DNA of 64,000 bases from Clostridiales bacterium (GTDB lineage Bacteria; Bacillota; Clostridia; Christensenellales; CAG-138): the NCBI GenBank assembly GCA_004558525.1, contig SFCQ01000004.1:117742-181741 (forward strand). The letters are read 5' to 3'. Every line of letters begins with the position of its first letter. The stretch's first letter is position 1. Below the pieces are notes generated by a model. It was not told the origin of the DNA and made no database searches. It saw only the letters and a list, made by a program, of their open reading frames with translations. The translations under genes were made by a program, and so were the position numbers. Below, piece after piece: positions 26,389 to 64,000 of the stretch.

Positions 26389-26457
26389 CTGAGTATCGAA
26401 AAAGTGGCGGACAGCCACTTTTTCGACTACCTGAAAGGCGGACAGCTCCGCCTTTTT
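26389..26457. terminator. Two back-to-back hairpins between convergent bioY and jag; the first is the family-1 AAAAAGTGGC/GCCACTTTTT module
   Basis: ATCGAAAAAGTGGC-GGACA-GCCACTTTTTCGAC (26389-26427), then AAAGGCGGA-CAGC-TCCGCCTTTTTT (26434-26457). Confidence 0.75.
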
Positions 26458-34262: not shown

Positions 34263-34329
34263 AAAAAGTGGCTGAGCCGCTTTCAGTCTGTCAAAAAAGT
34301 GGCTGGTCGCCACTTTTTTGAGCTTTTCA
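34263..34329 (+). repeat. Family-1 repeat, left-end fragment preceded by a related hairpin, between convergent patatin and mnmE
   Basis: AAAGTGGC-TGA-GCCGCTTT, then CAGTCTGTCAAAAAAGTGGCTGGTCGCCACTTTTTTGAGCTTTTCA. This is the terminal inverted repeat plus first hairpin of the 62369 element. Confidence 0.8.
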
Positions 34330-43164: not shown

Positions 43165-43190
43165 AATAAGGCGGGGCTAACGCCCTGCCT

Positions 43191-43325
43191 CAGAGTGTCG
43201 ATAAACTCCGGGGTTGTTAAGGGGCAGGCGCCCCTTAAGCTTTATTCCGGCTCTGACGGCATGCACGTCAGAACGGATGAAAACCTTTAGGTTTTCGTAC
43301 CTTGCGGGTTTTGCCGCCCGGGAGC
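43191..43325 (-). repeat. Family-1 structured repeat, truncated copy in inverted orientation
   Basis: Reverse complement aligns with 62430-62567 of the full copy. Homology stops at CCCGGGAGC, just before the thiT stop codon. Confidence 0.85.
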
Positions 43326-43335
43326 GGTGTTCGAT

Positions 43336-46907: not shown

Positions 46908-48488
46908 TCAGCTTAAGAATATAAGCCTGTCGCCCTCGTGCAGCTTGCCGGAGGGCTGGTCCTGGCAGGCTGCCTCAAGCACGCTTTTTACGGGCAGAGA
47001 GTAGCGCTTTGCTATATCAAACGCCGTCTCGCCCTCCGAGGCGAAGTACATTATTACCTGGCGGCTTCTTTTTACCGGTTCGCACTCCGTCATGCCGGTA
47101 AGCACGTTAAGCTCGTTTACGCAGTAAGGCACGGCGGATATATCCAGCGCGCATTCAACATTGAGCGCGCCTTGCTCATTCGTTGCAAGCGATATGCTCG
47201 CGCTGAGGCATCTTACGCGTGCAAAGGCCGAGTCGCAGTCCTGCCCCTGGTACTGTGTTTCGCAAAGGAAGGGTACCTCCGCAGGGAAGGAAAGCACAGC
47301 GCCGGAGGCCGTCCTCAGCGCGCAGCGCATGAATATAACGCCTTCAACGCTCAAAACCGAGCTTTTGACATAAGCGTTAGTGACATACGGCATGGCAAAG
47401 CAGCATATGACGGCATTTGCAGAGGGCGAGTTTTCCGGGAGCTGTACCGTTTCGTTTACCGTGCAGCGGAAGTTCTTCCTTTTAAGGCGGCAAATGACGC
47501 AGGTTGGCTCAAGCACGCTGACAAAGGCCTCTTTCGGGATAAATGCGTCTGACGGCACGCACAGCGCGGTCTGCTCGCTTGAAAATACTTCTGCCGAAAG
47601 CACGGCTTTTACCAAACCCATGCCGCTTGAAGCGTCAAGCGGCCTTACGTCTATGTCATTAACGTTTACGAATGCGAACGTGTCTCCCGCAGCTCTTTCG
47701 TCAAGGTCAGCCTCTATTGAGAAGGGGAGCTGCATAATATGGCTCATTATCCCGCCGCCAGAAAGCATTATAAGCTTTATCATCAGCTGGCCTTCTATCA
47801 TCGCGGTGTCTGAGCCTGTGTTAACGTCGCGCACGAAGGCTTCTCCCGTGGCGAATATCGGCTCCGCGCCGGCAGGCAGCGCGGCCTCGGCTTCAAAGGC
47901 TGTTTCGGATGAGCCTATCGCTTTTTCGTTGAATGTCAGCAGGTCGGTGCGCATGAATTCGCATTGCGCCCCGGCTATGCCGTCAAGCGCGCGCACAGGC
48001 TCCGCCATAAATGCGCTACACTCAAGCTGAACGGCGGCTTCCACGGTAAGCTCCATGCCGCTTCTAAGCTCGATGGATACCACGTCCGCGCTAACCTCGG
48101 CGCGCATGCCCTCGTGTACGGCGTCCATGGCAACGTTGTATTTGAATGCGGCGGAGGAGGTGAAGGCGCCGCCTCTTTCGCTCTGTGCCTGCTCAGCCCG
48201 TTCAGCCTCGGCCTGCTCGCCGTCTGCGCCGCCATCGCTGCCTGAGGAGGGCAGCGCCGCCGCCATGCTCTCGCGGCAGATAACGTTTACGCTTAGCCTG
48301 CCCTCTACGCATATCATGCCCTCTGCGGCGGTGGCCTTGGTAACGCTTGCCGAGGCGGAGCAGCACACAATTTCGGTATCGCTGAGCCTTCGCCCCGCAG
48401 GCAGCGGAAGCGCACCCTCAATAGAGGTCTGCGCGCTGGTCCTGGCCACCATCCGTTCTATGTTCATATCGCCAAAATGGAATTCCAT
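46908..48488 (-). CDS. DUF3794-like repeat protein with a C-terminal LysM domain (SipL/SpoVID-like spore morphogenetic candidate)
   Basis: 526 aa. The C-terminus YFASEGETAFDIAKRYSLPVKSVLEA...LHEGDRLIFL is a LysM fold. Size and architecture resemble clostridial SipL (from memory), and the gene is adjacent to spmAB. Confidence 0.55.
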   Translation of the reverse strand: MEFHFGDMNIERMVARTSAQTSIEGALPLPAGRRLSDTEIVCCSASASVTKATAAEGMICVEGRLSVNVICRESMAAALPSSGSDGGADGEQAEAERAEQAQSERGGAFTSSAAFKYNVAMDAVHEGMRAEVSADVVSIELRSGMELTVEAAVQLECSAFMAEPVRALDGIAGAQCEFMRTDLLTFNEKAIGSSETAFEAEAALPAGAEPIFATGEAFVRDVNTGSDTAMIEGQLMIKLIMLSGGGIMSHIMQLPFSIEADLDERAAGDTFAFVNVNDIDVRPLDASSGMGLVKAVLSAEVFSSEQTALCVPSDAFIPKEAFVSVLEPTCVICRLKRKNFRCTVNETVQLPENSPSANAVICCFAMPYVTNAYVKSSVLSVEGVIFMRCALRTASGAVLSFPAEVPFLCETQYQGQDCDSAFARVRCLSASISLATNEQGALNVECALDISAVPYCVNELNVLTGMTECEPVKRSRQVIMYFASEGETAFDIAKRYSLPVKSVLEAACQDQPSGKLHEGDRLIFLS

Positions 48489-48613
48489 TTATCCAAAGCT
48501 CCTTTCAACGCTAATATTCACCATAAATATATTTGAGGGCTTGCTTTTATATGACGGTGGTTTGCATTATAATGCCGACAATAAATCAGCATAAAAGTAA
48601 TTGCATAAATTTG

Positions 48614-48643
48614 TTGACAGATAAACCTTGCTTAGAGTATACT
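48614..48643 (+). promoter_or_regulatory. Candidate promoter of the tRNA cluster (TTGACA-N18-TATACT)
   Basis: Hexamers at 48614-48619 and 48638-48643, about 20 nt upstream of the first tRNA. Confidence 0.5.
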
Positions 48644-48665
48644 ATCTAATGCGGTTGGCGCATCT

Positions 48666-48741
48666 GGGAGCATAGCTCAGCTGGGAGAGCACTTGCCTTA
48701 CAAGCAAGGGGTCACAGGTTCGAGCCCTGTTGTTCCCACCA
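48666..48741 (+). tRNA. tRNA-Val (anticodon TAC)
   Basis: I folded the cloverleaf by hand: acceptor GGGAGCA/TGTTCCC, anticodon stem CTTGC/GCAAG, loop CTTACAA, T-loop GGTTCGAGCC, encoded CCA. Confidence 0.93.
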
Positions 48742-48774
48742 TAGCACATTATGGTGCATGGCGCAGCCGTGTAT

Positions 48775-48851
48775 GGCCCGGTGGTGCAGTTGGTTAGCAC
48801 GTCAGCCTGTCACGCTGAAGGTCAGGGGTTCGAGCCCCCTTCGGGTCGCCA
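48775..48851 (+). tRNA. tRNA-Asp (anticodon GTC)
   Basis: Anticodon stem TCAGC/GCTGA, loop CTGTCAC, T-arm AGGGGTTCGAGCCCCCT, encoded CCA. Confidence 0.92.
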
Positions 48852-48856
48852 AGCCT

Positions 48857-48932
48857 GCCTCGGTAGCTCAGCTGGTAGAGCAAGGGACTGAAAATCCCTG
48901 TGTCGGTGGTTCGACTCCACTCTGAGGCACCA
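48857..48932 (+). tRNA. tRNA-Phe (anticodon GAA)
   Basis: GCCTCGGTAGCTCAGCTGGTAGAGCA..., anticodon stem AGGGA/TCCCT, loop CTGAAAA, encoded CCA. Confidence 0.93.
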
Positions 48933-48939
48933 AGCTTAT

Positions 48940-49015
48940 GCGGGAATAGCTCATTTGGTAGAGCGCTGCCTTGCCAAGGCAGAGGTGGCGGGTTCGAGCC
49001 CCGTTTCCCGCTCCA
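48940..49015 (+). tRNA. tRNA-Gly (anticodon GCC)
   Basis: Acceptor GCGGGAA/TTCCCGC, anticodon stem CTGCC/GGCAG, loop TTGCCAA, encoded CCA. Confidence 0.93.
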
Positions 49016-49018
49016 TAT

Positions 49019-49093
<75 letters not shown>

Positions 49094-49127
49094 AAGCCCC
49101 AAGGACGCAAGCCTTTGGGGCTTCTTA
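49094..49127 (+). terminator. Hairpin after the tRNA cluster
   Basis: AAGCCCCAAGG-ACGCAA-GCCTTTGGGGCTT followed by a weak T-rich tail. Confidence 0.5.
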
Positions 49128-49187
49128 TATTCTAAAACCCTGCGGCGGAAATTCAGGGTACAAAAAAAGCCAGATTTCTCCGGCTCT

Positions 49188-49354
49188 CAGAGTGTCAAAA
49201 AAGTGGCTGGTCGCCACTTTTTTGAGTTTTCACAGGTTTTGCCTCTCGCATTAGCTCCCGGGCGGCAAAACCTGCAAAGTACGATGTCGTCAGAGCCGGA
49301 TTGAACATAAGGGGCTGCGGCCCCTTATCAACCCAGGGGTTTTTTGACAGACTG
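49188..49354 (+). mobile_element. Family-1 structured repeat, complete-ended copy with an internal ~35-bp deletion
   Basis: Termini are CAGAGTGTCAAAAAA ... TTTTTTGACAGACTG (13/15 inverted repeat), and the internal hairpins are shared with 62369-62572. It is flanked by AAAGCCAGATTTCTCCGGCTCT (49166-49187) and AAAGCCCGATTTCTCGGGCTCT (49355-49376). Confidence 0.8.
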
Positions 49355-49391
49355 AAAGCCCGATTTCTCGGGCTCTGATAATGATTCTTCC

Positions 49392-49736
49392 TTATTCCTT
49401 CGTAAAGGTTCCGCTTATGCCCATGCCGGCGTTGTCGTTCATGGTCAGGCTGTCGCCGTCAACGGAGAAGGTGTATACCTTTGCCTCATCCCAAAGCTCC
49501 AGCTTTACGGTCATCTGGTCGCCCTCAATGGTGTAAGTTCCATCCTGCTCCATATAGGTGTTTTTCATGGAGCATTTGCCGCTGCCGTTAAACTCCCAGG
49601 TAACAACACCGTCGGCGCCAAGGTCAGCCGTCCATTTTCCGGCAACAGCGTCCTTGCTGCCGCAGGCAACCATAGCAAGCGCTATAGCTATAACGAGAGT
49701 CATTGCGGCAAGCGTCTTAAAAATGTTTTTCTTCAT
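49392..49736 (-). CDS. Small lipoprotein (lipocalin-like beta protein of unknown function)
   Basis: 114 aa with a MKKNIFKTLAAMTLVIAIALAMVAC lipobox; the remainder is beta-strand-rich. Confidence 0.65.
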   Translation of the reverse strand: MKKNIFKTLAAMTLVIAIALAMVACGSKDAVAGKWTADLGADGVVTWEFNGSGKCSMKNTYMEQDGTYTIEGDQMTVKLELWDEAKVYTFSVDGDSLTMNDNAGMGISGTFTKE

Positions 49737-50059
49737 AGTGATATCCTTTCAAAAGCAGTATTTGACCCTGCGCGGCGCATGTGAAGGGAATATATGTAAG
49801 GCCGCGATTAGGATCATAGAAAGTATATCAAACAAGAAGGGGTTTAGCAAGGAGGGCGCCCATGCAGAAGGGGAGGGCAAAAAAGCCCCAGCTATCTGGC
49901 TTTTTCGGGCAACGGACAGGACGCAGGGAGAAAGTATTTACAATTACTTCACAGGTTTTATACCCGGCCAGGCCCATACGGCAAGGCCTGTATAAAGAAA
50001 AAGCGTGCAGCGGCTTTTTTATGCTATAATTAGCTATCATTTAATACCGGAGACGGCAT

Positions 50060-50902
50060 ATGGACAAACTGCTAATAATAGATGGCAGCAACCTGCTCTT
50101 TCAGATGTATTACGGCATGCCGGCGAGGATATTCGCAAAGGACGGCAGGCCTATACACGGCACAATAGGCTTTGTCGGCGCGCTCATAAGGGTAATACGC
50201 TCGATAAAGCCGACGCACGCCGCAGCCATATTCGATGGCGAGAACCCAAGCGAAAGAAGCGCGCTGTACGGCATGTACAAGGCCAACAGAACGGATTACA
50301 GCGGCATGAAGGTCGAGGATACGCCCTTTTCCCAGCTTAAGGACATATATTCTGCGCTTGATGCATTGAACATAAAGCATGCCGAAACCTGCGGCTGCGA
50401 AACGGACGACATAATAGCCGCATATGCGCACAGATACGGCGAGGCGTGTGAAATAGTAATAATGTCATTTGACAGCGATTATTTTCAGCTCATAACAAAG
50501 AACGTTACCGTGCTTAGATACAGGGGAAAGAACACGACCCTATGCACCGAAGAGTATATATTGGAGAAATACGGCATAAGGCCAGGCGACTATGCCGATT
50601 TTAAGTCGCTTACGGGGGACAGTGCGGATAACATTAAGGGAGCCTGTAAGGTAGGCCCTAAAACCGCGGCGGAGCTTATAAACAGCTTTGGCGGCATAGA
50701 AGACATAATAGCCGCGGCGGATATGATAAAAAAGCCATCCATAAGGGAATCGATAATAAAAAGCGGCGAAAGGCTAAAGCTCAACAAAAGGCTTATCAGG
50801 CTTGACGGCGGCCATGCGCTGCCGTTTGAAAAAGAAGCCCTCGTCTTTCATGACATGGGTCAAACAAGCACCCGGCTGTTAAAAGAGCTTGGCGTATTAT
50901 AA
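50060..50902 (+). CDS. 5'-3' exonuclease / flap endonuclease (Pol I N-terminal domain homologue)
   Basis: 280 aa with LLIIDGSNLLFQ, ...FD....R...Y..YKA.R..., ...E.DD.IA... and the H3TH LTGDSADNI.G...VGPKTA..L. Confidence 0.88.
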   Translation: MDKLLIIDGSNLLFQMYYGMPARIFAKDGRPIHGTIGFVGALIRVIRSIKPTHAAAIFDGENPSERSALYGMYKANRTDYSGMKVEDTPFSQLKDIYSALDALNIKHAETCGCETDDIIAAYAHRYGEACEIVIMSFDSDYFQLITKNVTVLRYRGKNTTLCTEEYILEKYGIRPGDYADFKSLTGDSADNIKGACKVGPKTAAELINSFGGIEDIIAAADMIKKPSIRESIIKSGERLKLNKRLIRLDGGHALPFEKEALVFHDMGQTSTRLLKELGVL

Positions 50903-50918
50903 TTATAGTATAGTTTGC

Positions 50919-50967
50919 AGAATGTCAAAAAAAGTGGCTATTCGCCACTTTTTCGAGCTTTCACAGG
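50919..50967 (+). repeat. Family-1 repeat, left-end fragment (terminal repeat plus first hairpin) acting as a terminator between convergent genes
   Basis: AGAATGTCAAAAAAAGTGGC-TATTC-GCCACTTTTTCGAGCTTTCACAGG. Confidence 0.8.
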
Positions 50968-50978
50968 CTGTAGTTTAT

Positions 50979-51803
50979 TCATTGCTTATTCGGGAACACT
51001 ATGCCGGTAAGCTCGCAAAAGCTGTGTATAACATAGTCCGGCTTTATGTCGTTGCGCTCAAGGTGCCTGGCCAAAGCCTTCTCCCTTTCGTAATCCTCAG
51101 GCAGCCAGCTCGTTATCTTGAGCAGCTTTTCGGAGTAGTCGTTATCCTCCCTGAAATAATTGGCCCAAACTGCCGTAACGCCCGCCGCCTTGGCCATATA
51201 AACGTCCTTTGTAAGGCTGTCGCCAACGTATACGACCTCGCCGGGGAGGTAGCCCTCCCTTTGGCATATGCCGCTTAGCAGCTCAACGTCCGGCTTGCGC
51301 CTGTGTACGGGTATCACCTTTTCGTTTGCCGCGTAGCTGCTTTGGAAGCCGCTTTCAAACGCGTATATATGCTTGAAGTACTTTTCCACGCCAAGCTTTT
51401 GCAGCCGGTATACGCCTGTTTCCTGCGATGATTCCGTGTAGCCTATAAGCGTTATGCCGTTGTTGTAAAGCGTATCGAGGGTGGCCTCCGCCCCGCTGAA
51501 AAGGTGGAGGTGGCTGTTGCGTATTGAGTTGAATTTCTGGAAAGCGGGCCTGAACACCTGCTTTAGCTCATCGTCGCTCAGCTTGGGATACTTTTTGCGT
51601 ATGGAAGGCAGCTGCAAGGTGGCATAGGGGTATTCCACCGAGCCCAGGCGCTGATGCGTCATGCGGTATTCGTCAAGAAGCGCGTCCTCGTCTATGCCTG
51701 TAATGGCCGCTATCTCATCGGCCATTGCATAGAATGCGGGCACAAAAAAACCGGACCAATCATATATAGTATCGTCAAGATCGCTGACAAGCAGTTTTAT
51801 CAT
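50979..51803 (-). CDS. HAD-superfamily hydrolase
   Basis: I trimmed the start to MIKLLVSDLDDTIYDW (motif I DxDxT); ...VGDS..KD... is motif IV. Confidence 0.8.
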   Translation of the reverse strand: MIKLLVSDLDDTIYDWSGFFVPAFYAMADEIAAITGIDEDALLDEYRMTHQRLGSVEYPYATLQLPSIRKKYPKLSDDELKQVFRPAFQKFNSIRNSHLHLFSGAEATLDTLYNNGITLIGYTESSQETGVYRLQKLGVEKYFKHIYAFESGFQSSYAANEKVIPVHRRKPDVELLSGICQREGYLPGEVVYVGDSLTKDVYMAKAAGVTAVWANYFREDNDYSEKLLKITSWLPEDYEREKALARHLERNDIKPDYVIHSFCELTGIVFPNKQ

Positions 51804-52035
51804 ACAAGCCCCCAAAAATGCAGCAATAGTGTAGCTTGCATATTACAATATAGCGCAGGCAAAGTCAACACGTTAAATAGCGAAGCGATACGGACCCGCC
51901 GTGCTTAATTGTATTGCAAGTTGATGTAAAACATTGTACAATAATGTCAAAGCGCTATTGTGGCGGTATACCGCTCGTCGGCTTGCATAAAGGCAGGTTA
52001 TCTTGAGGTGCGGAGCCGCGGAAAGGGGAGCGGAA

Positions 52036-52785
52036 GTGTTCGATCTGCAAAAGGCAAGCTTTTTGAAGAGGGCTTCGGCATTTCTTTTTGACGGGATACT
52101 TATAGGCGTATTGGCCGTCGGTTTCGGCTTCCTGCTCTCTTTGCTGCTCAATTATGACGGCAGCTATGCGCGGCTTTCGGGCCTGTATGATAAGTATGAG
52201 CAGAAGTACCGGATAAGCTTTGATATAGCTGACGGGGATTATGCCGCTTTAGATGAAGAAACGCTTGAAAGATACGAAAAAGCTTATTCCGAGCTTAATG
52301 CCGACGGCGAGGCTAACGCCGCTTTTTCAATGGTGGTGTATCTGTCGCTTATAATAATCACCTTCGGCGTGCTGCTTGCGTATATGGCGCTTGAGTTCGT
52401 GGTTCCGCTATTTCTTAAAAACGGGCAGACGCTGGGTAAAAAAATATTCGGCATCGCCGTCATGAGGACGGACGGCATACGCATATCACCTCTTATCCTT
52501 CTTATAAGAACACTTTTGGGAAAATATACGATAGAGACAATGACCCCCATACTTGTTGTATTTTTAACGGTATTCGCGGGGCTTGGATATATTGGATTGG
52601 TCGCGCTTGCGGGGCTTGCGCTGCTGCAAATACTGCTTATGGCATTCACAAAGACCAATTCCGCAATACATGACGTGCTTGCGCGCACGGTGGTCGTGGA
52701 TCTTGCGAGCCAGATGATATTTGACGACGAGCAGCACAAGCGGCAAAAGCTTGAAGAATACGCCAGCTATAACCCGTACGGCTGA
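52036..52785 (+). CDS. RDD-family membrane protein
   Basis: I prefer the GTG start at 52036 after GGGGAG. ...KRASAFLFDGILIG... and ...GQTLGKKIFGIAVMRTDG... are RDD domain motifs. Confidence 0.75.
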   Translation: MFDLQKASFLKRASAFLFDGILIGVLAVGFGFLLSLLLNYDGSYARLSGLYDKYEQKYRISFDIADGDYAALDEETLERYEKAYSELNADGEANAAFSMVVYLSLIIITFGVLLAYMALEFVVPLFLKNGQTLGKKIFGIAVMRTDGIRISPLILLIRTLLGKYTIETMTPILVVFLTVFAGLGYIGLVALAGLALLQILLMAFTKTNSAIHDVLARTVVVDLASQMIFDDEQHKRQKLEEYASYNPYG

Positions 52786-52870
52786 TACGGCCGGAGCCTG
52801 ACCCGCTGAGCTTAAGCGTTAAAAACAATAACAATAAATCAAAAAATAAGAAGCAAGGAAAAGAGAGCGT

Positions 52871-53974
52871 ATGAAAGTCGAATTGCGAAACATAACAAAG
52901 GTTTTTCCGGGGCGCAGCAAAAAGCAGAACGAAGAGGTGGTTGCGGTAGATAACTGCAGCATAACCATACCGGACGGTAAGCTTATAGGCCTGCTTGGGC
53001 CCTCCGGCTGCGGCAAAAGCACCACGCTTTATATGATATGCGGCCTGCAAAAGCCAACAAAGGGCCAGATATTCTTTGGCGAGGACGATGTTACGGAGCT
53101 TGCGCCGGAAAACAGGGGCGTCGGGCTGGTGTTCCAGAACTATGCGCTTTATCCGCATCTCACAGTAAAGCAGAACATACTTTTCCCGCTTCAAAACCTT
53201 AAGGGGGAGGACAGGCCCTCCAAGGAGGAGATGCTCAAAAGGGCGTATGAAACGGCAAAACTCGTGCAGATAAGCGAGCTTATGGACAGGAAGCCGAGCG
53301 AGCTTTCCGGCGGCCAGCAGCAGCGCGTGGCGATAGCGCGCGCGCTCGTTAAGATGCCCAGGGTGCTGCTGCTTGACGAGCCTCTTTCCAACCTTGACGC
53401 AAGGCTCAGGCTGCAAACAAGGGAGGAGATACGCCGTATACAGCGCGAAACGAAAATAACCACCGTGTTCGTTACCCACGACCAGGACGAGGCCATGAGC
53501 ATTTCCGACTATATAGTGGTTATGAAGCAGGGCGTGGTGCAGCAGATAGGCAAGCCGCAGGAGGTATATGACGATCCGGACAATCTGTTCGTAGCCAAAT
53601 TCCTCGGCACGCCGCCTATAAACGTGTTCAGCGGGCATATAAAGGACAATACGGTATTCATCGGCGGCGAGGGCGTGCTCAGGACCAAGTCCGCTCCGGA
53701 CGGCGAGGTATATATAGGCGTGCGTCCTGAAGGGTTCATACTTAACGATAGCGGCGCGCTTGGCTGCGAGCTGAGCAGGATAGAGGTAATGGGCAGGGAC
53801 ATGAGCATAATTTCAAAGAACGATGCTTCTGTAAACGAGACTATACGTTCAATAATAAATTCCGATATAAAGGCCGATCCGGGCGCAAAGACCGTCCGCT
53901 TCGACATAAAGCCGCACAAGCTGTTCTTATTCGATAAGGAAAGCGAAAAGCGGATACGCTTTGAGGTGGAATAA
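52871..53974 (+). CDS. Carbohydrate-type ABC transporter ATP-binding protein (MalK/UgpC/MsmX-like)
   Basis: 367 aa with Walker A GPSGCGKST, signature LSGGQQQRVAIARAL, Walker B LLLDEPLSNLD and a C-terminal TOBE-like regulatory domain. Confidence 0.93.
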   Translation: MKVELRNITKVFPGRSKKQNEEVVAVDNCSITIPDGKLIGLLGPSGCGKSTTLYMICGLQKPTKGQIFFGEDDVTELAPENRGVGLVFQNYALYPHLTVKQNILFPLQNLKGEDRPSKEEMLKRAYETAKLVQISELMDRKPSELSGGQQQRVAIARALVKMPRVLLLDEPLSNLDARLRLQTREEIRRIQRETKITTVFVTHDQDEAMSISDYIVVMKQGVVQQIGKPQEVYDDPDNLFVAKFLGTPPINVFSGHIKDNTVFIGGEGVLRTKSAPDGEVYIGVRPEGFILNDSGALGCELSRIEVMGRDMSIISKNDASVNETIRSIINSDIKADPGAKTVRFDIKPHKLFLFDKESEKRIRFEVE

Positions 53975-53975
53975 A

Positions 53976-54920
53976 ATGGTAGAAAGCAAGCAGAAGTGGA
54001 AGGCGTGGCTGTATCTGGCCCCGGCAATAGCCTTGCTGCTGGTGTTTACGGTATGGCCGATAATAAACACGGTGCGCATGGCGTTCCTTGAAGGGTACAG
54101 GGGGCTTGAGGCGGCAAACGGGCAAACCTTCCAAATAGGCGTAGAGAACTTTGTAAAGGTAGTAAAGTATAAAAGGTTCCTCAGCTGCCTTAAGAATACG
54201 GTGCTGCTGTGCGTGCTTACCGTGCCCATATCCAGCTTTTTGGCGCTGCTGGTGGCGGTGTTCCTCAATTCGATAAAGTGGCTGCAAAAGCCGCTGCAAA
54301 CGGTGTTCTTTTTGCCGTATGTAACGAACTCTATCGCAATAGGCATGGTGTTTGCCGCAATGTTCAATATCGTAGGCAGCTTTTACGGCACCGAAAATGA
54401 GATAGTGGTAACGGCCGGCATAATAAACAACATAATAGAGTTCTTTGGCGGCAAGGCCATAAACTGGATAAACTACGGCTCATCCTACATAGCCAACATA
54501 ACCGTTATGGTAATATACATCGTGTGGAACGCGCTGCCGTTTAAGATACTTATTCTGCTTGGCGGGCTGCAAAGCATAAACAAGCAGTATTATGAGGCCG
54601 CCAAGGTGGACGGTACGTCAAGAACAAGGATATTCACAAGGATAACCGTGCCGCTGCTTTCGCCAATGCTGGCGTATGTCGTCATAACCGGCTTTATAGG
54701 CGGGTTCAAGGAATACACCAGTATAATCGGCATATTCGGCGAATCCATGGGCCCGGCCGACGATGCCGGCAGGCTCAACACCATGGTCGGCTTTATATAC
54801 GACGCTATAGAAAGCAACAACCAGGGCAGGGCGAGCGCGGCAGCGCTTATACTGTTCGTGATAATTCTTGCGGTAACGCTCATCAATTTGCAGGTAAGCA
54901 AAAAGAGCGTGCATTATTGA
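53976..54920 (+). CDS. Carbohydrate ABC transporter permease (MalF/UgpA-like)
   Basis: I trimmed the start to MVESKQKWKAWLYLAP. The EAA loop is YYEAAKVDGTSRTRIFTRITVPLLSP. Confidence 0.9.
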   Translation: MVESKQKWKAWLYLAPAIALLLVFTVWPIINTVRMAFLEGYRGLEAANGQTFQIGVENFVKVVKYKRFLSCLKNTVLLCVLTVPISSFLALLVAVFLNSIKWLQKPLQTVFFLPYVTNSIAIGMVFAAMFNIVGSFYGTENEIVVTAGIINNIIEFFGGKAINWINYGSSYIANITVMVIYIVWNALPFKILILLGGLQSINKQYYEAAKVDGTSRTRIFTRITVPLLSPMLAYVVITGFIGGFKEYTSIIGIFGESMGPADDAGRLNTMVGFIYDAIESNNQGRASAAALILFVIILAVTLINLQVSKKSVHY

Positions 54921-54928
54921 GGTGTACT

Positions 54929-55816
54929 ATGGACGGCATTAAAGTTATGCGGGAGCGCGATATAGGCTCCGCCCGTTCGCACCAGAGGATAGTAGGAATA
55001 GCGGCGCAGGCGTTTTGCTATCTGTTCCTCATATTCATGGCGCTGGTGGTGCTTTTCCCGTTTTATTGGATGATAAACTCCTCGTTGAAGAGCCTTGCCG
55101 AATATAAGCAAAGCGTGCCCACGTTTTGGCCAAACAAGGTGCTTTGGAGCAACTATGCCGAGGCGTTCAGCTCGGCAAGCCTTGGCAGGCTGTTCCTTAA
55201 CACGGCATACGTCGGCATAGTGTCCACCCTGCTTTCGCTGGTCATAACCATACTTTCTGCATTCGCGTTTGCAAGGCTTGAATTCAGGGGCAAGGATCTT
55301 CTGTTTTCGGCTCTGCTCGCTACTATGATGATACCGGGCGAGCTTTTCACCATAACCAATTACAGCACGGTCACCATGCTCGGCTGGAGGAACACATACA
55401 CGGTGCTTATCGTGCCCTTCCTCGTCAGCGTATTCTATATCTATCTTTTAAGGCAGAACTTTTTGCAGATACCCAACGAGCTTTATCTTGCCGCCAAGGT
55501 GGACGGTACGAGCGACTTCAAATATCTGTGCAAGGTGATGATACCGCTTTCTCTGCCTACGCTTATATCGATAACCATATTAAAGATGATGGGCGCGTGG
55601 AACTCCTACATATGGCCGAGGCTCGTGGCCAACGATGAAGCGCACAGGCTCATAACAAACGGACTTAGGAACGCGTTTACGGATACTACGGGCGATGTTA
55701 ATTATCCCGTGCAGATGGCGGCTGTCGCGCTCGTGTCGGCGCCGCTGTTCCTGGTGTTCGTGTTCCTGCGCAAATATATAATGAAGGGCGTTAGCCGAAG
55801 CGGCATAAAAGGTTAG
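54929..55816 (+). CDS. Carbohydrate ABC transporter permease (MalG/UgpE-like)
   Basis: The EAA loop is LYLAAKVDGTSDFKYLCKVMIPLSLP. Confidence 0.9.
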   Translation: MDGIKVMRERDIGSARSHQRIVGIAAQAFCYLFLIFMALVVLFPFYWMINSSLKSLAEYKQSVPTFWPNKVLWSNYAEAFSSASLGRLFLNTAYVGIVSTLLSLVITILSAFAFARLEFRGKDLLFSALLATMMIPGELFTITNYSTVTMLGWRNTYTVLIVPFLVSVFYIYLLRQNFLQIPNELYLAAKVDGTSDFKYLCKVMIPLSLPTLISITILKMMGAWNSYIWPRLVANDEAHRLITNGLRNAFTDTTGDVNYPVQMAAVALVSAPLFLVFVFLRKYIMKGVSRSGIKG

Positions 55817-55858
55817 CCAACCATATATGACAAACAAAGAAAGGTAAGGAAAACACAA

Positions 55859-57364
55859 ATGACAAAAAGAATCCTCTCCATTATGCTGGCAGTAATGCTT
55901 GTGCTTGGCGCGGTCGCCATGACCGCGTGCAGCGCCGGCAATACTCCCGCGGACAACGATCAGCAGACAGCCGGGCCCGCCGATAACAGCGGCGCCAACA
56001 CGGACGAGCCTGCACCCGTAGAGCCTGCCAAGGCGAAGGGCAACTTTGAAGTACCCGAAGCCGGTTATGACGGAAGCGAGGTCACCATAACCTTCTATCA
56101 TACCATGGGTACCAACCTGAGCGACGTTCTCGACCTTTATATTGCCGAGTTCAACAAGCTCTACCCCAATATCCATATCGATTCCCAGAAGATAGGCAGC
56201 TATGACGACGTGCGCGACCAGGTCAGCACCGAGATCACCGTCGGCACCCAGCCCAACATCGCTTACTGCTATCCCGACCACGTTGCGCTGTACAACCTTG
56301 CCGGCGCCGTGGCTACGCTGGATAACCTTATCGACAGCCAGATAGAGGTTGCCCGTGCGGACGGTTCAACCGAAATACTCGGCCTGACCGACGGGCAGAA
56401 GGCCGACTTCATCCCCGGTTACTATGCGGAAGGCGCCCAGTTTGGCGATGGGCTGATGTACACCATGCCCTTCTCCAAGTCCACGGAGGTCCTTTATTAC
56501 AACAAGACCTTCTTTGACGCCAACGGCCTTACCGTACCCACCACCTGGGAGGAGATGGAGGCTGCCTGCGCCAAGATAAAGGAGATTGACCCCAACTCCA
56601 TACCCCTTGGGTATGACAGCGAAAGCAACTGGTTCATAACCATGTGCGAGCAGTACGGCTCCGAATACACCAGCGCGTCAGGCGACCATTACCTGTTCAA
56701 TAACGAGACTAACCGCAGCTTTATCAAGATGTTCCGCGAATGGTACCAGAAGGGCTACCTGACCACCCAGAAGCTCTATGGCGCCTATACCTCCGGCTTG
56801 TTCACCTCCACCGGCGATGTAAAGAGCTATATGTCCATAGGCTCCTCCGCGGGCGCGACCTATCAGCGTCCCGCCGCCGATGCTGACGGCAACTATCCCT
56901 TTGAGGTCGGCATCTCCACCATTCCGCAGCTTGGCAACGGCAACAACAAGGTAATCTCCCAGGGCCCGAGCGTATGCATATTCAAGAAGGATAACGCTCA
57001 GGAGGTAGTGGCCTCCTGGCTGTTCATCAAGTACCTGACCACCAGCGTGGATTTCCAGGCGGAGTTCTCAATGGCCTCCGGCTATGTTCCCGTGCTTAAG
57101 AGCGTGGCGAACAACGAAGCCTACGCTTCCTTCCTCGGCCAGGCTGACGGCGGCAAATTCATATCCGCCCTCAGCGCAAAGGTCTGCCTTGAGCAGGAGG
57201 AGTACTATTATACCTCCCCCGCATTCAACGGCTCTTCCACCGCGCGCGACCAGGTAGGCGCGCTTCTTACCAAGTGCCTTACCGCTGACGATGGCGGCGA
57301 TGCGGACGCCATGATAGAGCAGGCGTTTGAAGACGCCATAAGCGAGTGCGAGTATCACGGTTAA
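55859..57364 (+). CDS. Extracellular solute-binding lipoprotein (family 1), unusually long (501 aa)
   Basis: Lipobox LGAVAMTACS, a low-complexity linker, then a typical SBP_bac_1 pattern (...ITFYHTMG..., ...MPFSKSTEVLYYNK..F...G). Confidence 0.88.
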   Translation: MTKRILSIMLAVMLVLGAVAMTACSAGNTPADNDQQTAGPADNSGANTDEPAPVEPAKAKGNFEVPEAGYDGSEVTITFYHTMGTNLSDVLDLYIAEFNKLYPNIHIDSQKIGSYDDVRDQVSTEITVGTQPNIAYCYPDHVALYNLAGAVATLDNLIDSQIEVARADGSTEILGLTDGQKADFIPGYYAEGAQFGDGLMYTMPFSKSTEVLYYNKTFFDANGLTVPTTWEEMEAACAKIKEIDPNSIPLGYDSESNWFITMCEQYGSEYTSASGDHYLFNNETNRSFIKMFREWYQKGYLTTQKLYGAYTSGLFTSTGDVKSYMSIGSSAGATYQRPAADADGNYPFEVGISTIPQLGNGNNKVISQGPSVCIFKKDNAQEVVASWLFIKYLTTSVDFQAEFSMASGYVPVLKSVANNEAYASFLGQADGGKFISALSAKVCLEQEEYYYTSPAFNGSSTARDQVGALLTKCLTADDGGDADAMIEQAFEDAISECEYHG

Positions 57365-57370
57365 ACGAAT

Positions 57371-58744
57371 ATGAAAAGGCTTGCCGCAGCGACGCTGCTT
57401 TTGGCCGTTTGCCTTATCGCAGGCTGCTCCGCCATGCCGCAGGATGTACTGCCCAGCATGGCGGGGGCGGCAGCCACGCTGGAGCAAACGGCTGATGCGG
57501 CCGTAAGTGAAGCCGGCACAGAGGCTCAGGATAACGGCGAGGTTATAGACTACGCGGCCGAAGCGAAGATGGGCGGCAGCGAGACCGCAAAGCAGGAGGT
57601 TACCGTTGCTGCTTATGTGGACGGGGATACGGTCCACTTCAGCGTGCCGGAAAGCGTTGACCCCTCCGGCGTGCTGAAGGCCCGCTTTATAGGCGTAGAT
57701 ACGCCCGAATCCACCGGAAAGATAGAGGAATACGGCAAAAAGGCCGCCGGCTTTACGAAGGAAAGGCTAAGCGATGCCAGGAGCATAGTGATAGAATCCG
57801 ACAACGGGAGCTGGAACCTTGACTCCACCGGCGGAAGGAGCCTTGTTTGGGTATGGTATAAGCCGCAGGACGCAGGCGGCTACCGCAACCTTAACATAGA
57901 GCTTTTGCAGCAGGGGCTTGCTGTTCCCTATTCGTCAAGCAACAACCGCTTAGGCTCCGTGTGCATGGCCGCGATAGCGCAGGCCAGGCGGGATAAGCTC
58001 AACATATATTCGGGAGAGAAGGATCCGGACTTCTACTATGGCGACGCCGTTGAGCTTACGTTAAAGGAGCTGAGGCTCAACATAGCTGATTACGAGGGCG
58101 TGAAGGTCGCCTTTGAGGGCGTTATAACAATAAACGGCGGCAACAGCGTTTTTGTTGAGCAGTATGACGAGGAGACGGGGCTTTGCTACGGCATGAGCGT
58201 GTACTATGGCTACGGCATGTCGGGAGCCGGCCTTGATATACTCTCCGTCGGCAATCTTTCAAGGATAGTCGGCACCGTGCAGTATTATGAAGCCGGGGAC
58301 AGGTACCAGGTTTCCGGCCTGAGCTACAGGCAGATGAAGCCGGACGCGCCCGATAATATCAAAAAAATAGCCTCCGGCTACGAGCCGCGCTATGCCGAGA
58401 TAACGGCCGCTGATTTTGCAGGCGCCGCCGTTAAGCTTGACGGTGAAAACAGGGCGCAGGAGCTTGAGCTTAGCGAGCTTTTGATGGACACTACGGTATC
58501 GATGAAGGCGCTTAAGGTAAAAAGCGTATATATCGAGGATAACGGCAAGGCTACGCTCAGCTGCGAAAGCTCCGGCGCGGAAGTGAGCGTGCGCGTTGAG
58601 GCGCTTACAAACGCAGACGGCGAGCCGGTGATAACAAAGGCGCTCAAAGGCAAACGCATAGACGTTAAAGGCGTTGTGGACAGCCATAACGGCTTTAAGC
58701 AGGTGCATGTATTCCTGCCGGAGGGCGTTGCGGTAAAGAAGTAA
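57371..58744 (+). CDS. Secreted lipoprotein: staphylococcal-nuclease (SNase/thermonuclease) domain followed by OB-fold-like C-terminal domains
   Basis: Lipobox LIAGCS. The SNase motifs are VDGDTVHF...ARFIGVDTPES...EYGKKAAGFTKE...LDSTGGRSLVWVW...NLNIELLQQGLA. The C-terminus (...VAFEGVIT...NSVFVEQYDEE...RIVGTVQYY...YQV) looks like a YhcR-type OB fold. Confidence 0.8.
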   Translation: MKRLAAATLLLAVCLIAGCSAMPQDVLPSMAGAAATLEQTADAAVSEAGTEAQDNGEVIDYAAEAKMGGSETAKQEVTVAAYVDGDTVHFSVPESVDPSGVLKARFIGVDTPESTGKIEEYGKKAAGFTKERLSDARSIVIESDNGSWNLDSTGGRSLVWVWYKPQDAGGYRNLNIELLQQGLAVPYSSSNNRLGSVCMAAIAQARRDKLNIYSGEKDPDFYYGDAVELTLKELRLNIADYEGVKVAFEGVITINGGNSVFVEQYDEETGLCYGMSVYYGYGMSGAGLDILSVGNLSRIVGTVQYYEAGDRYQVSGLSYRQMKPDAPDNIKKIASGYEPRYAEITAADFAGAAVKLDGENRAQELELSELLMDTTVSMKALKVKSVYIEDNGKATLSCESSGAEVSVRVEALTNADGEPVITKALKGKRIDVKGVVDSHNGFKQVHVFLPEGVAVKK

Positions 58745-58785
58745 AGAATCAAACTAAATCTAACTAAACGAAAGAGGGAGAAAAG

Positions 58786-60198
58786 ATGAAAAGAATAATC
58801 GCGTGTATGATAGCGCTTGCGCTGTTCGTGATGGCGTTTGCGGGCTGCTCCGCCACTACGGACGGAGAGAACAACGCGCCCGTCGAGTCAGCTCAGCCCG
58901 ACGTCGAGCCCAGCACGGAGCCCAGCACAGAGCCTGTTGTTGAAGAGGACGCCATAAATCCCCTTGAAAACGCCAAGGAATATATCTACCAGATATACAA
59001 GAACGTCGCCAGCAAGACCCCCGCTGATTATCAGGTGGTGGGCGTTGTTGTGGTAAACGGCGTGACCTATCAGATTGAATGGACCGCCGCCGTGAACAGC
59101 GGAGCCGAGGATGCCGTTGCGGTAGCCGGGATGGGCGAGGATAAGATGGTCACCATAGACGTTAACGAGGCCTGCGCCGAGGAATCCGCCTACACCCTTA
59201 CCGCTACCATAAAGGACGAGCAGGGCAACAGCGCGCAGCAGAGCTTTGAGCGCATAGTCCCCAAGGGCTTTGACCTTGGCACCGCCAGCTATGATGAAAT
59301 AGTCGCCGCCGCCTACGAGCTTGAGGAGGACGCGGCGCTTGAAGGCACGCTCAGGCTGTTCGGTACCATTGTCAGCATAGACACTCCGTTCAGCGCCGAG
59401 TACAACAATATAACCGTCACCATAGCCGTAAAGGGCATGGAGGAATACCCTGTGCAGTGCTACCGCTTAAGCGGCGAGGGCGCTGACAAGCTTGCCGAGG
59501 GCGATGCTATCACCGTTGAGGGCAGCATAAAGAACTACAAGGGCACCATAGAGTTCGATAAGGGCTGCGTGCTTGTAGGCATGGGCGAGTTTATAGACCA
59601 GTCCAAGCTGCTTGAAAATGCCTACGCCCTCGAGGAGGACGCCGCCATGGTAACCGCCACCGCGCTCAAGGGCGTTATAAGCAGCATAGACACCCCATAC
59701 AGCGATGAGTACAAGAACATCACCGTAACCATAGTTTGCGACGGCATAGAGGATAAGCCCGTGCAGTGCTACCGCTTAAGCGGCGAGGGCGCAGACAAGC
59801 TTGCCGAGGGCGACGAGATAGCCGTGTTCGGTATCATAAAGAACTACAAGGGCACCATAGAGTTCGATAAGGGCTGCGTGCTCATACCGGCCGATGCGCT
59901 TTCGGGAGCAAAGACACTCGCCAAGGCCTACGCTCTTGAGCCCGATACCGAGATGAAGGGCGTAAAGACCCTCACCGGCACTATTGCGTCAATAGACACG
60001 CCGTACAGCGATGAGTACAAGAACATCACCGTAACCATAGTGGTCGGCGGCCTCAACGACTATGCCATACAGTGCTTCCGCTTAAGCGGCGAAGGCGCGG
60101 ACAAGCTTGCCGAGGGCGATGTTATAACCGTTACAGGAGCTATAAAGAACTACAAGGGTACCGTTGAGTTCGACGCGGGCTGCACCTTTGTAAAATAA
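58786..60198 (+). CDS. Lipoprotein with three tandem ~102-aa OB-fold-like repeats
   Basis: Lipobox FAGCS. The repeat unit A.AYALEEDA.....L.G.I.SIDTPYS.EY.NITVTI......PVQCYRLSGEGADKLAEGD.I.V.G.IKNYKGTIEFDKGC occurs three times, at roughly aa 170-270, 275-370 and 375-470. Confidence 0.75.
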   Translation: MKRIIACMIALALFVMAFAGCSATTDGENNAPVESAQPDVEPSTEPSTEPVVEEDAINPLENAKEYIYQIYKNVASKTPADYQVVGVVVVNGVTYQIEWTAAVNSGAEDAVAVAGMGEDKMVTIDVNEACAEESAYTLTATIKDEQGNSAQQSFERIVPKGFDLGTASYDEIVAAAYELEEDAALEGTLRLFGTIVSIDTPFSAEYNNITVTIAVKGMEEYPVQCYRLSGEGADKLAEGDAITVEGSIKNYKGTIEFDKGCVLVGMGEFIDQSKLLENAYALEEDAAMVTATALKGVISSIDTPYSDEYKNITVTIVCDGIEDKPVQCYRLSGEGADKLAEGDEIAVFGIIKNYKGTIEFDKGCVLIPADALSGAKTLAKAYALEPDTEMKGVKTLTGTIASIDTPYSDEYKNITVTIVVGGLNDYAIQCFRLSGEGADKLAEGDVITVTGAIKNYKGTVEFDAGCTFVK

Positions 60199-60224
60199 GG
60201 GAGTATTTATTGCACACTGATTTG

Positions 60225-60253
60225 AAGAAGCGGCAGCTTGCCGCTTCTTTTTT
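60225..60253 (+). terminator. Rho-independent terminator after the OB-repeat lipoprotein gene
   Basis: GAAGCGGCA-GCT-TGCCGCTTC followed by TTTTTT. Confidence 0.8.
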
Positions 60254-60306
60254 GCCCGGCATATGCTAAAATAATAATTAAAGTAATGTAAAAGGGGGAT
60301 GTGCGC

Positions 60307-60537
60307 ATGAAAAAGCTGTTTGATTTTAATAACGACGGTGAAGTAGACCTTACGGAGCAGATAATCGGCTGCGAGCTGCTTATGAGCGATGCGGAGGAGG
60401 CGGACGAACTTTCGCTTGACGCTTCCGACGCCATAGAAGAACCTGACGCTCTTGACGGCACTTTTGACGAGTACGGTGACGATGCCGTGCTTACGGAGCT
60501 TTACAGCGGGCTCGACTCTAAATTCGGAGAATATTAA
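60307..60537 (+). CDS. Small acidic protein with an EF-hand-like loop
   Basis: About 76 aa. DFNNDGEVDLTE fits the 12-residue EF-hand Ca-binding loop DxNxDGxxDxxE; the rest is Asp/Glu-rich. Confidence 0.45.
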   Translation: MKKLFDFNNDGEVDLTEQIIGCELLMSDAEEADELSLDASDAIEEPDALDGTFDEYGDDAVLTELYSGLDSKFGEY

Positions 60538-60550
60538 GAAGGAGCGCGAT

Positions 60551-60880
60551 ATGACCGTAAACGAATATCAAAAGCTGGCGCTGAGCACGATGAACCCGAA
60601 GCTGAACAGAAATGACGTGCTTATAAACAGCGCAATGGGCCTTTGCGGCGAAGCCGGAGAGGTAATAGACATAGTTAAAAAATGGTTCGCCCATGGGCAT
60701 GAGCTTAACAGGCAGAAGCTTATAGAGGAGCTTGGCGACGTTGCCTGGTATATTGCCGAAGCGGCATACGCGCTTGATACCGACCTTGAAAGCATACTTG
60801 CCGCCAACATAGAAAAGCTGAAAAAACGCTATCCCGAAGGCTTTTCGAGCAGGAACAGCATAGAAAGAACCGGCGATTGA
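60551..60880 (+). CDS. MazG-like nucleotide pyrophosphohydrolase (small all-alpha NTP-PPase)
   Basis: I trimmed the start to MTVNEYQKLALST.... ...GL.GEAGEV.D..KK........L......ELGDV.WY.A. is the MazG EExxE/D pattern. Confidence 0.75.
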   Translation: MTVNEYQKLALSTMNPKLNRNDVLINSAMGLCGEAGEVIDIVKKWFAHGHELNRQKLIEELGDVAWYIAEAAYALDTDLESILAANIEKLKKRYPEGFSSRNSIERTGD

Positions 60881-60955
60881 AGGGGCGGAAGTTGCACATT
60901 TCCGCTTGCGCGTGCTATACTTAATCAATCACTATCTATAAAGAGGTGTCAGAAC

Positions 60956-62263
60956 ATGAAAAATCCCGTTGCCGAAAAACTGCTTGATTTTATGAAGAAC
61001 AGCCCGACGCGCTATCAGGTCGTGGCAAACTTTGAACAAAGGCTGAACGATGCCGGATATACGAAGCTGTATCCGGAAAAGGTATGGCAGCTTGAGAACG
61101 GCGGCAAGTATTATCTTTCGCCAAACGGAACGGCCATAATGGCTTTCAGGATACCCGATAAGGTCAGCGGCGGCTTTATGATGGCCGCGGCGCACAGCGA
61201 TTCGCCAACGTTTAAGGTAAAGGACAATGCGGAAAAGGCGTCCGCGCATTATGTGCAGCTAAGCACGGAAAGATACGGCGGCGCGCTTATGGCCACATGG
61301 TTCGACAGGCCGCTTTCCGTTGCCGGCAGGGTGCTTGTAAGGGGCGAAAACGGAAGGATAGCCGTTAAGCTTGTAAATATAGACAGGGACCTTGTTATTA
61401 TCCCCAGCGTTGCCATACACATGAACAGGAACGCCAACGCCGGCTTTGAAATAAAGGCAAATATAGATACCCTGCCGCTGTTTTCCGATGAAAGCGGCAA
61501 GGATGCGTTCATGCAGCTTGTGGCCCAAAGCGCAGGCGTTGCAAAGGAGGATATACTCTGCCATGACCTGTATCTGTATAACAGGCAGCAGCCCGCCTTC
61601 CTCGGCAGGAATGATGAATACATAGCCTCGCCCAAGCTTGACGATGTCGAGTGCGCGTTCGGCTGCATGGAAGGCTTTATCGCGGCTGAAGAAAGCGGCA
61701 GCATACCCGTATGCTGCGTGTTTGATAACGAGGAGGTAGGCAGCGAGACCAAGCAGGGCGCGGCCGCAAACGTGCTAAGGGATACGCTGAGGCGCATAGC
61801 GCTTGCCTTAGGCAAAAGCGAGCAGGAGTATCTGGCCATGATAGCGCAGAGCTTCATGGTATCTGCGGACAATGCGCACGCCCAGCACCCCAATCACCCC
61901 GAGTATTCGGATATGGACAACTGCCCGTATATGAACCGGGGTATAGTAATCAAGTTCAACGCCAGCCAGAAATACACTACCGACGGCGTATCGGCCGCCA
62001 TATTCAGGCAGGTATGCAAGGAGGCAGGGGTACCCGTGCAGGTGTTTGCCAACAGGTCTGACCTTGCGGGCGGCGGAACGCTTGGCAGCATAGCCACCAC
62101 AAAGGTGCCGGTAAGCACGGTGGATATAGGGCTTGCCCAGCTTGCCATGCATTCCTGCTACGAGACCGCCGGCGCGGAGGATATAGAAAGCCTTGTCAAG
62201 GCCATGAGAGTGTTCTTCTCAAAGACGATGACGGTTGAAAACGGCGAATACGGCGTAGAGTAA
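60956..62263 (+). CDS. M18-family (aspartyl) aminopeptidase
   Basis: 435 aa. ...AAAHSDSPTFKVK..., ...DNEEVGSETKQGA... and ...DIGLAQLAMHS..E. are typical M18/M42 metal-ligand regions. Confidence 0.85.
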   Translation: MKNPVAEKLLDFMKNSPTRYQVVANFEQRLNDAGYTKLYPEKVWQLENGGKYYLSPNGTAIMAFRIPDKVSGGFMMAAAHSDSPTFKVKDNAEKASAHYVQLSTERYGGALMATWFDRPLSVAGRVLVRGENGRIAVKLVNIDRDLVIIPSVAIHMNRNANAGFEIKANIDTLPLFSDESGKDAFMQLVAQSAGVAKEDILCHDLYLYNRQQPAFLGRNDEYIASPKLDDVECAFGCMEGFIAAEESGSIPVCCVFDNEEVGSETKQGAAANVLRDTLRRIALALGKSEQEYLAMIAQSFMVSADNAHAQHPNHPEYSDMDNCPYMNRGIVIKFNASQKYTTDGVSAAIFRQVCKEAGVPVQVFANRSDLAGGGTLGSIATTKVPVSTVDIGLAQLAMHSCYETAGAEDIESLVKAMRVFFSKTMTVENGEYGVE

Positions 62264-62368
62264 TAAAGGCGCGCAAAAAAAAGAGGCGTCAGCATACCTG
62301 TGCAGGGCAGGTCGGCCGCGCCGTATAAAAAACGATAAAAGCAGGGGGGCGGATCATTCCGCCCCTTC

Positions 62369-62572
62369 AGAGCGTCGAAAAAGTGGCTGGTCGCCACTTT
62401 TTCGAGTTTTCACGGGTTTTGCCTCTCGCATTAGCTCCCGGGCGGCAAAACCCGCAAAGTACGAAAACCTCTGGGTTTTCATCCGTTCTGACGTGCATGC
62501 CGTCAGAGCCGGAATAAAGCTTAAGGGGCAGCCGCCCCTTAACAACCCCGGGGTTTATCGACACTCTTGAGT
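62369..62572 (+). mobile_element. Family-1 structured repeat, longest (reference) copy
   Basis: Six consecutive hairpins with imperfect terminal inverted repeats. It is bracketed by an exact 21-bp direct repeat at 62348-62368 and 62573-62593. Confidence 0.8.
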
Positions 62573-62578
62573 GGCGGA

Positions 62579-63964: not shown

Positions 63965-64000
63965 ATCGGAATCTGCGCGCTTTATTCCCCGTCTTACTGC

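Follow-up and report, generated by a model that had tools for sequence, protein, structure and literature searches.

A gene-less MITE with IS1182-family ends in a bacterial terminator hairpin that is duplicated on both sides of the element

A 167-bp gene-less MITE with IS1182-family ends is confirmed here to sit in the terminator hairpin of a lipoprotein gene, with the 22-bp hairpin duplicated on both sides of it. The reading that we prefer, with a probability of roughly 85%, is that the element is a non-autonomous derivative of the IS1182-family DDE insertion sequences (ISs) common in Oscillospiraceae, that it landed on the lipoprotein terminator, and that the hairpin was duplicated by the insertion. 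The observations on which this mechanism is based are the exact tips of the element, a flush repeat that coincides with the hairpin, the same footprint around transposase-encoding relatives, and two independent hits with the same boundaries. Insertion of this kind is rare, but its principle was already known, from IS1630 in 1999 and from the hairpin targeting of IS1272 in 2016-17; the locus confirms it, without being a discovery, and adds a double hit and an allele series.

Results and discussion

The insertion site

The window, that is, the whole analysed stretch of 64,000 nucleotides, corresponds to C34:117742-181741 of a source assembly of 1.86 Mb in 35 contigs (93.7% complete). It contains a DUF5640 lipoprotein gene on the minus strand (49392-49736), a 114-aa ORF with a match to PF18692 (81 bits) and a lipoprotein-signal-like N-terminus. 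Reading along the minus strand, the stop codon of this gene is separated by 15 nt from the gene-proximal hairpin copy (49355-49376; plus strand AAAGCCCGATTTCTCGGGCTCT, minus strand AGAGCCCGAGAAAUCGGGCUUU), which is followed by the MITE copy and then by the distal hairpin copy (49166-49187, 22 bp; plus strand AAAGCCAGATTTCTCCGGCTCT, minus strand AGAGCCGGAGAAAUCUGGCUUU). The MITE copy itself (49188-49354, plus strand, 167 bp) starts with CAGAGTGTCAAAAAA, ends with TTTTTTGACAGACTG and covers positions 2-202 of the nhmmer profile of its family (E 1e-46).

Direct reading of the sequence bore out the original prediction of an element set flush between duplicated hairpins of about 21-22 bp, since both 22-mers abut the element with a gap of 0 and share 20/22 positions. 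The local-alignment score of this flank pair is 32, and the 99th percentile for flank pairs taken from mismatched copies is 19. The flank had also been called locus-specific, and the 22-mer indeed occurs at just these two sites in the whole assembly, with no third site when 4 mismatches are permitted. On the minus strand the proximal copy folds at -14.0 kcal/mol (z -5.3) and the distal copy at -11.8 kcal/mol (z -4.2), in agreement with their description as terminator-type hairpins 3' of the lipoprotein gene.

As had been noticed, the T-run is left at the distal copy alone. It is the original run, A7 on the plus strand at 49159-49165, so that the distal copy is followed by T7 on the minus strand, and at the proximal copy the element, not the T-run, now stands downstream. 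The terminator is split into a hairpin without a T-run and a distal hairpin with one, and about 200 nt of structured sequence are added at the 3' end of the transcript. The empty allele was reconstructed as the stop codon, 15 nt, AGAGCCCGAGAAATCGGGCTTT and TTTTGT, with an expected single-hairpin junction of ...TCATTATCAGAGCCCGAGAAATCGGGCTTTTTTTGTACC....

Structure of the element

The terminal inverted repeats of this copy match at 13/15 positions. The left one (49188-49203, plus strand, CAGAGTGTCAAAAAAG) is of the IS1182 left-end (IRL) type and matches the left ends CAGNCTGTCGAAAAAG of 63 full-length ISs, and the right one (49337-49354, plus strand, reverse complement CAGTCTGTCAAAAAACCC) is of the IS1182 right-end (IRR) type. 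A subterminal hairpin (49196-49224, plus strand), CAAAAAAGTGGC-TGGTC-GCCACTTTTTTG, extends over the inner half of the left repeat, and the IS left ends are built alike. In the Alifold structure of 70 copies this hairpin has a 12-bp stem, in which the pair 10/36 (window 49197 and 49223) covaries, being G-C in 35 copies and A-U in 22. The tip hairpins and the covarying left stem hint that shape is recognized on both partners of the reaction, the element end as well as the target.

No ORF is contained in the element; the one frame that reaches into it is a chance frame of 99 aa (48955-49254) running across tRNA genes and the distal hairpin. An Rfam search of 48000-64000 at E <=1 gave no match for the element, the only matches being tRNAs and two weak unrelated ones. 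With its short length, inverted repeats, many dispersed copies and locus-specific duplications, and with no transposase ORF, the element is a MITE. The original prediction that about 35 bp of the interior are missing was close: compared with the copies at the same site in nine other strains, which are 199-200 bp long, the copy in the window has an internal deletion of 33 bp (junction 49283/49284) that is private to the strain of the window.

Other reduced forms of the element were seen as well. A MITE copy at window 43190-43326 (C34:160931-161067) has a private 5' truncation of 64 nt, and all other strains examined have a full copy there. 'Mini' elements of about 45 bp consist of the left tip, the subterminal hairpin and an inverted right tip (CAGAGTGTCGAAAAAGTGGC-loop-GCCACTTTTTCGACACTCTG), for example at window 26391-26429, C22:36896-36938 and C28:25219-25261; most of them have unlike hairpins on their two sides and no duplication. 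Stumps of the left end that lack the inverted right tip are found at window 34285-34327 and 50919-50969.

Genome-wide family and its duplications

By BLAST and an nhmmer profile, the family comprises 197 pieces in the genome, 62 of them full-length (about 200 bp), with a total of 23.3 kb or 1.25% of the genome. The consensus derived from 70 copies with 60-bp flanks runs from CAGAGTGTCGAAAAAG through the hairpin and the interior to TTTATCGACAGGCTG, and in this alignment conservation ends exactly at the CAG and CTG tips. The closest pair of copies within the genome is 95% identical; because the copies are no more similar to each other than this, the family is old and largely fixed in the species.

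Duplicated flanks were scored in two ways. Under the local-alignment criterion (a flank pair scoring above the 99th percentile of shuffled left/right pairs) 39/62 full copies pass, and under a strict criterion (a repeat of at least 12 nt and at least 85% identity that abuts both tips) 32/62 pass, compared with 0/610 shuffled pairs. The finding that would have told against the original prediction, namely that no other copies have duplicated flanks, was therefore not obtained. The repeats of the 39 copies each have a different sequence, and the great majority fold: 95% reach -5 kcal/mol or better (13% of random genomic 22-mers) and 77% reach -10 kcal/mol or better (0.7%). Their ends lie at the feet of the stems, with no unpaired base at the 5' end in 27/39 copies and with 0-1 unpaired base at the 3' end in 29/39, exactly one in 23. 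The survey thus upheld one half of the proposal made from this locus, that the targets are stem-loops, and overturned the other, a duplication length fixed at 21-22 bp; the length varies from 15 to 32 bp (17-32 under the strict criterion), has a median of 22-24 according to how repeats are scored, and corresponds to the foot-to-foot span of the hairpin. For annotation, two identical terminator hairpins separated by about 200 bp are the mark of this MITE family, not regulatory tandem terminators.

A quite different explanation is that the 22-mers belong to the element itself, as a longer conserved end, or are attachment sites of a site-specific recombinase, and it has in its favour that direct repeats of about 20 bp are equally a product of site-specific integration. 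We consider it extremely improbable, given that the 22-mer is unique to its locus and that a different repeat stands at each of the 39 copies; the strain comparison below bears on it further, on both sides.

The remaining 23/62 full copies have no flanking repeat. A strong hairpin is present at the left flank in 16/23 of them and at the right flank in only 8/23, many having one at the left end only, so whole-hairpin duplication is not the sole outcome of insertion or else later rearrangement is frequent. The pattern suggests a second, one-sided insertion outcome or the loss of the right hairpin copy. Some of these copies have duplications of 4-6 bp at a hairpin foot.

Strain comparison and a second insertion in the same hairpin

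The public assembly collection has the exact lipoprotein sequence in 2,458 indexed blocks, and several of the contigs that were read are from pig-gut metagenomes. In 9/10 strain contigs read, the same insertion is present in the same orientation, with a length of 199-200 bp. In the tenth (L027), and in all seven contigs with the lipoprotein allele P0002 (96% identical), the site is occupied by a different family member, which is inserted the other way round, has the same two hairpin copies on its sides and shares the proximal junction. This alternative member is only 87-90% identical to the usual one and is nearer to copies elsewhere in the genome (up to 93%), and the flanks are 98.7-98.8% identical. 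Inversion in situ was rejected as the source of the opposite-orientation allele, because the elements differ by 11-12% and the flanks by just 1.2%. The hairpin was therefore hit twice, by different family members.

The lipoprotein site is thus a natural replicate, with two members, in opposite orientations, at the same hairpin and the same junction, which supports the conclusion that the duplication is determined by the hairpin rather than by the enzyme. It also argues further against the 22-mers being an element end or a recombinase site, as the locus-specific hairpin stays the same around another family member that points the other way; taken with the uniqueness of the 22-mer and the variety of the repeats, it disposes of the concern, raised with the original prediction, that the 22-mers might be an element end shared by other copies.

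One observation that would fit an element end or a recombinase site is that no empty site was recovered. No empty allele was present at the lipoprotein site in the ten strain contigs or in eight contigs from diverged lipoprotein alleles, and at the C17:84009 (chromate-transporter) and rplT copies all fetched strain contigs (10 and 4 read, respectively) were filled. In the 20-kb stretch around the lipoprotein site no copy was polymorphic for presence among the strains, and two metagenome scans for empty-site patterns gave 0 matches. In other species of the genus the tRNA cluster is kept and the downstream region is not. Downstream of rplT, eight anchored genomes of the genus have other, non-homologous sequence with no MITE, and several of them have a single hairpin with a T-run there; as the sequences compared are non-homologous, this comparison is only supportive evidence on the empty site.

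Several contigs (L028/L143, L137, L138 and L177) carry a chimeric element whose far end is joined to a different hairpin and different genes. This suggests that recombination between MITE copies rearranges the chromosome, the alternative being metagenome assembly chimeras at a repeat; MITE copies appear to mediate inter-locus rearrangements. Such inter-copy recombination is also suggested as one cause of copies that lack a repeat or lie between two different hairpins. At C17:84009-84210 the right tips differ among strains (...GACACTCTT, ...GACAGACTG and ...GACAGGCTG in L129-L138) and the interiors are mosaic, which suggests gene conversion among copies.

IS1182-family relatives and the source of the ends

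Transposases of the IS1182 family were found above the NCBIfam cut-off in 6/61 genomes of the same taxonomic family, all of other genera. One of them, L034, scores 394 bits with NF033551 (cut-off 270) and has DUF772, DDE_Tnp_1 and DDE_Tnp_1_6 domains. Used as a query, it retrieved 80 related loci, mostly in Oscillospiraceae MAGs, of which 63 could be delimited to elements of about 1570-1610 bp; the transposases of the other elements are 67-100% identical to that of L034 (tblastn).

In these ISs the left tip is CAGNCTGTCGAAAAAG, behind which come an A-tract, a hairpin and a T-tract; the right tip is CAGNCTGTCGA(G/A)AAAC, with a hairpin next to it. The MITE left end matches the IS left end at 16/17 positions; on the right, 17/18 positions are shared between the MITE consensus, CAGCCTGTCGATAAACCC, and the IS ends, CAGCCTGTCGAGAAACCC. 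At both ends, MITE and IS have the tip-plus-hairpin build in common. The full-length elements of Oscillospiraceae and related Clostridia (for example in MAGs and isolates of Faecousia, Pygmaiobacter and Pseudoflavonifractor; L049-L128) thus have tips like those of the MITE, with an 8-nt tip and then a hairpin at each end; like the MITE, they insert at GC-rich hairpins beside A- or T-runs and show flush whole-hairpin duplications. They differ in being about 1570-1610 bp long and encoding a DDE transposase, whereas the MITE has 167-200 bp and no ORF, and the likeness between MITE and IS is limited to some 16-18 nt per end and the architecture. An element moved by another enzyme family with the same footprint, for instance an IS30-type transposase like that of IS1630, is very improbable, as the tips of the MITE match the IS1182 left and right ends over 16-18 nt and its subterminal hairpin build agrees with theirs too.

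Among about 45 full-length elements with both flanks, 19 have perfect whole-hairpin duplications of 23-36 bp, with a gap of 0 at both tips, and about half lie between two different GC-rich hairpins (e.g. L049, L053, L054, L070, L080). Because these 19 elements carry perfect whole-hairpin repeats, the habit of duplicating the whole hairpin belongs to the transposase group, on which the MITE rides as a non-autonomous passenger.

The MITE occurs in 14/15 further genomes of the genus, and some genera elsewhere in the family have it too. In the 93.7% complete assembly, searches with NF033551, PF01609, PF13751 and PF05598 gave no match and no transposase of the IS4/IS5/IS1182 type, and pairs of the inverted repeats lying 1-5 kb apart, examined as candidates for an autonomous copy, enclose ordinary genes and share no transposase. 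None of the 15 other genus genomes has a match above the IS1182 cut-off, weak matches (<=39 bits) occurring in G013 alone.

The missing transposase would also be expected if the duplications were made by the host and not by staggered transposase attack, through stalled replication with template switching at the hairpin or through break repair with the element as filler. Hairpins are obstacles to replication, and long, variable target duplications made with no transposase are known from insertions of restriction-modification genes (PMC2853133). We nevertheless judge a host origin improbable: in dozens of copies the junctions are base-exact at the CAG...CTG tips, which are conserved, full-length elements with a DDE transposase gene show the same footprint around them, and both MITE ends match putative transposase-binding ends.

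Proposed mechanism and comparison with known systems

On the preferred reading, the element would have inserted into the DUF5640 lipoprotein gene's intrinsic terminator, by means of a transposase supplied from an IS that is absent from the assembly, and the copies would be old. The palindrome would most likely have been extruded as a cruciform or otherwise displayed as a hairpin. Each transposon end would have been joined to one foot of the hairpin, the two on opposite strands, probably with the transposon 3' ends linked to the 5' feet of the stem-loop, and gap repair would then have left a complete 22-bp stem-loop on either side. Because the ends would join at the hairpin feet and gap repair would copy the stem-loop, it is the hairpin, not the enzyme, that would set the length of the duplication. 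Since the insertion, the distal copy would have kept the T-run and changed from C:G through G:G to G.U, and the element in the strain of the window would have lost 33 bp.

Among described systems, IS1272 and TnSha1, staphylococcal elements of the IS1182 family, also insert at hairpins; many of these are confirmed terminators, and they share no primary-sequence consensus (Furi et al. 2016, PMC4923244). They resemble the MITE in transposase family, in hairpin targets and in terminal repeats that can form stem-loops, and also in striking the same hairpin repeatedly and in both orientations: the double hit at the lipoprotein site parallels the repeated hits of TnSha1, in both orientations, on one plasmid terminator (Furi et al. 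2016, PMC4923244).

The footprint of IS1272 is the opposite of that seen here. In IS1272 the stem-loop is partly deleted or replaced ('blunt cuts', 'IR-replacing') and the target is not duplicated, whereas the MITE duplicates its hairpin. The cruciform model proposed for IS1272 includes an alternative (b) that duplicates the stem-loop, and IS1272 follows branch (a), in which attack at the 3' feet leads to replacement of the stem-loop and no duplication (Wan et al. 2017, PMC5678879). For IS1272, duplication is thus a hypothetical branch of a model only, and the joining proposed above for the MITE would correspond to this branch (b). The IS1272-type 'stem-loop replacing' mode was rejected for the MITE, as the hairpin is intact on both sides at 49188-49354 and at 32-39 other copies.

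The footprint of the MITE is instead that of IS1630, an IS30-family element of Mycoplasma fermentans for which Calcutt, Lavrrar and Wise reportedly described hairpin-duplicating insertion in 1999, and which is said to have inverted repeats of 27 bp. As far as can be compared by description, both duplicate the hairpin, and the MITE family shows the IS1630-type behaviour in its repeats of 15-32 bp, of which 95% fold and which end at the stem feet. The two differ in that IS1630 has an IS30 transposase and other ends and is a full-length IS. ISfinder gives direct repeats of 0-60 bp for the IS1182 family; in the open literature searched, whole-hairpin duplication by IS1182 elements was not described.

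More tentatively, and with somewhat less than an even chance of being right, this IS1182 subgroup and its MITEs may use DNA shape on both partners, recognizing a tip-plus-hairpin end on the transposon and a hairpin or cruciform foot at the target, with strand transfer across a four-way junction. The polarity of attack might then decide between duplication of the hairpin, as in the MITE, and its deletion, as in IS1272; this part of the shape-reading proposal is put forward with the same reserve. If it is true, the length of the duplication could be set by the choice of stem-loop.

Paired substitution in the distal hairpin

The two differences between the hairpin copies had been placed on positions that pair with each other, forming C:G proximally and G.U distally on the minus-strand RNA, and this placement was confirmed. 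Across nine collinear strains (L139-L148), four of the 22 nt in the distal hairpin vary, compared with a mean of 0.35, and only 1.2% of the 22-nt windows in the surrounding 3 kb have at least four; one of its positions is tri-allelic (C/T/G). The proximal hairpin is invariant in all strains examined. The distal alleles form a series on the minus strand: C:G folds at -14.0 kcal/mol, the same as the proximal copy, U:G at -11.8 kcal/mol, the mismatched G:G at -9.7 kcal/mol and G:U, the state of the window, at -11.8 kcal/mol. The plus-strand fold is not regained, staying at -5.6 kcal/mol. The distal hairpin therefore looks like one that was broken and then repaired by a wobble pair in the sense of the lipoprotein transcript, and selection keeping terminator function is a plausible but unproven cause.

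Almost as probable as not is that the paired substitution reflects a mutation hotspot or chance, with no selection for a working terminator stem. The differences are paired in only 1/5 duplications with at least two differences, at the 49166-49376 locus alone, several other copies have uncompensated stem-breaking changes, and the concentration of variable sites in the distal copy, with its tri-allelic first position, is what a hotspot would produce. From a count of position pairs, we roughly estimate the paired state by itself as a 1-in-6 coincidence across the five loci. The existence of the G:G intermediate in other strains gives the paired substitution some extra weight: three of the four alleles pair on the minus-strand RNA, the mismatched allele is followed by G.U with a gain from -9.7 to -11.8 kcal/mol, and it is only in RNA of the lipoprotein sense that the pair comes back. 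As a trait of the family, the paired substitution was rejected on the count of 1/5 qualifying duplications. In one further copy, at C9:27953-28153, the hairpin copies have identical stems and differ just by a flip of the loop (AAAT versus ATTT), a small loop inversion.
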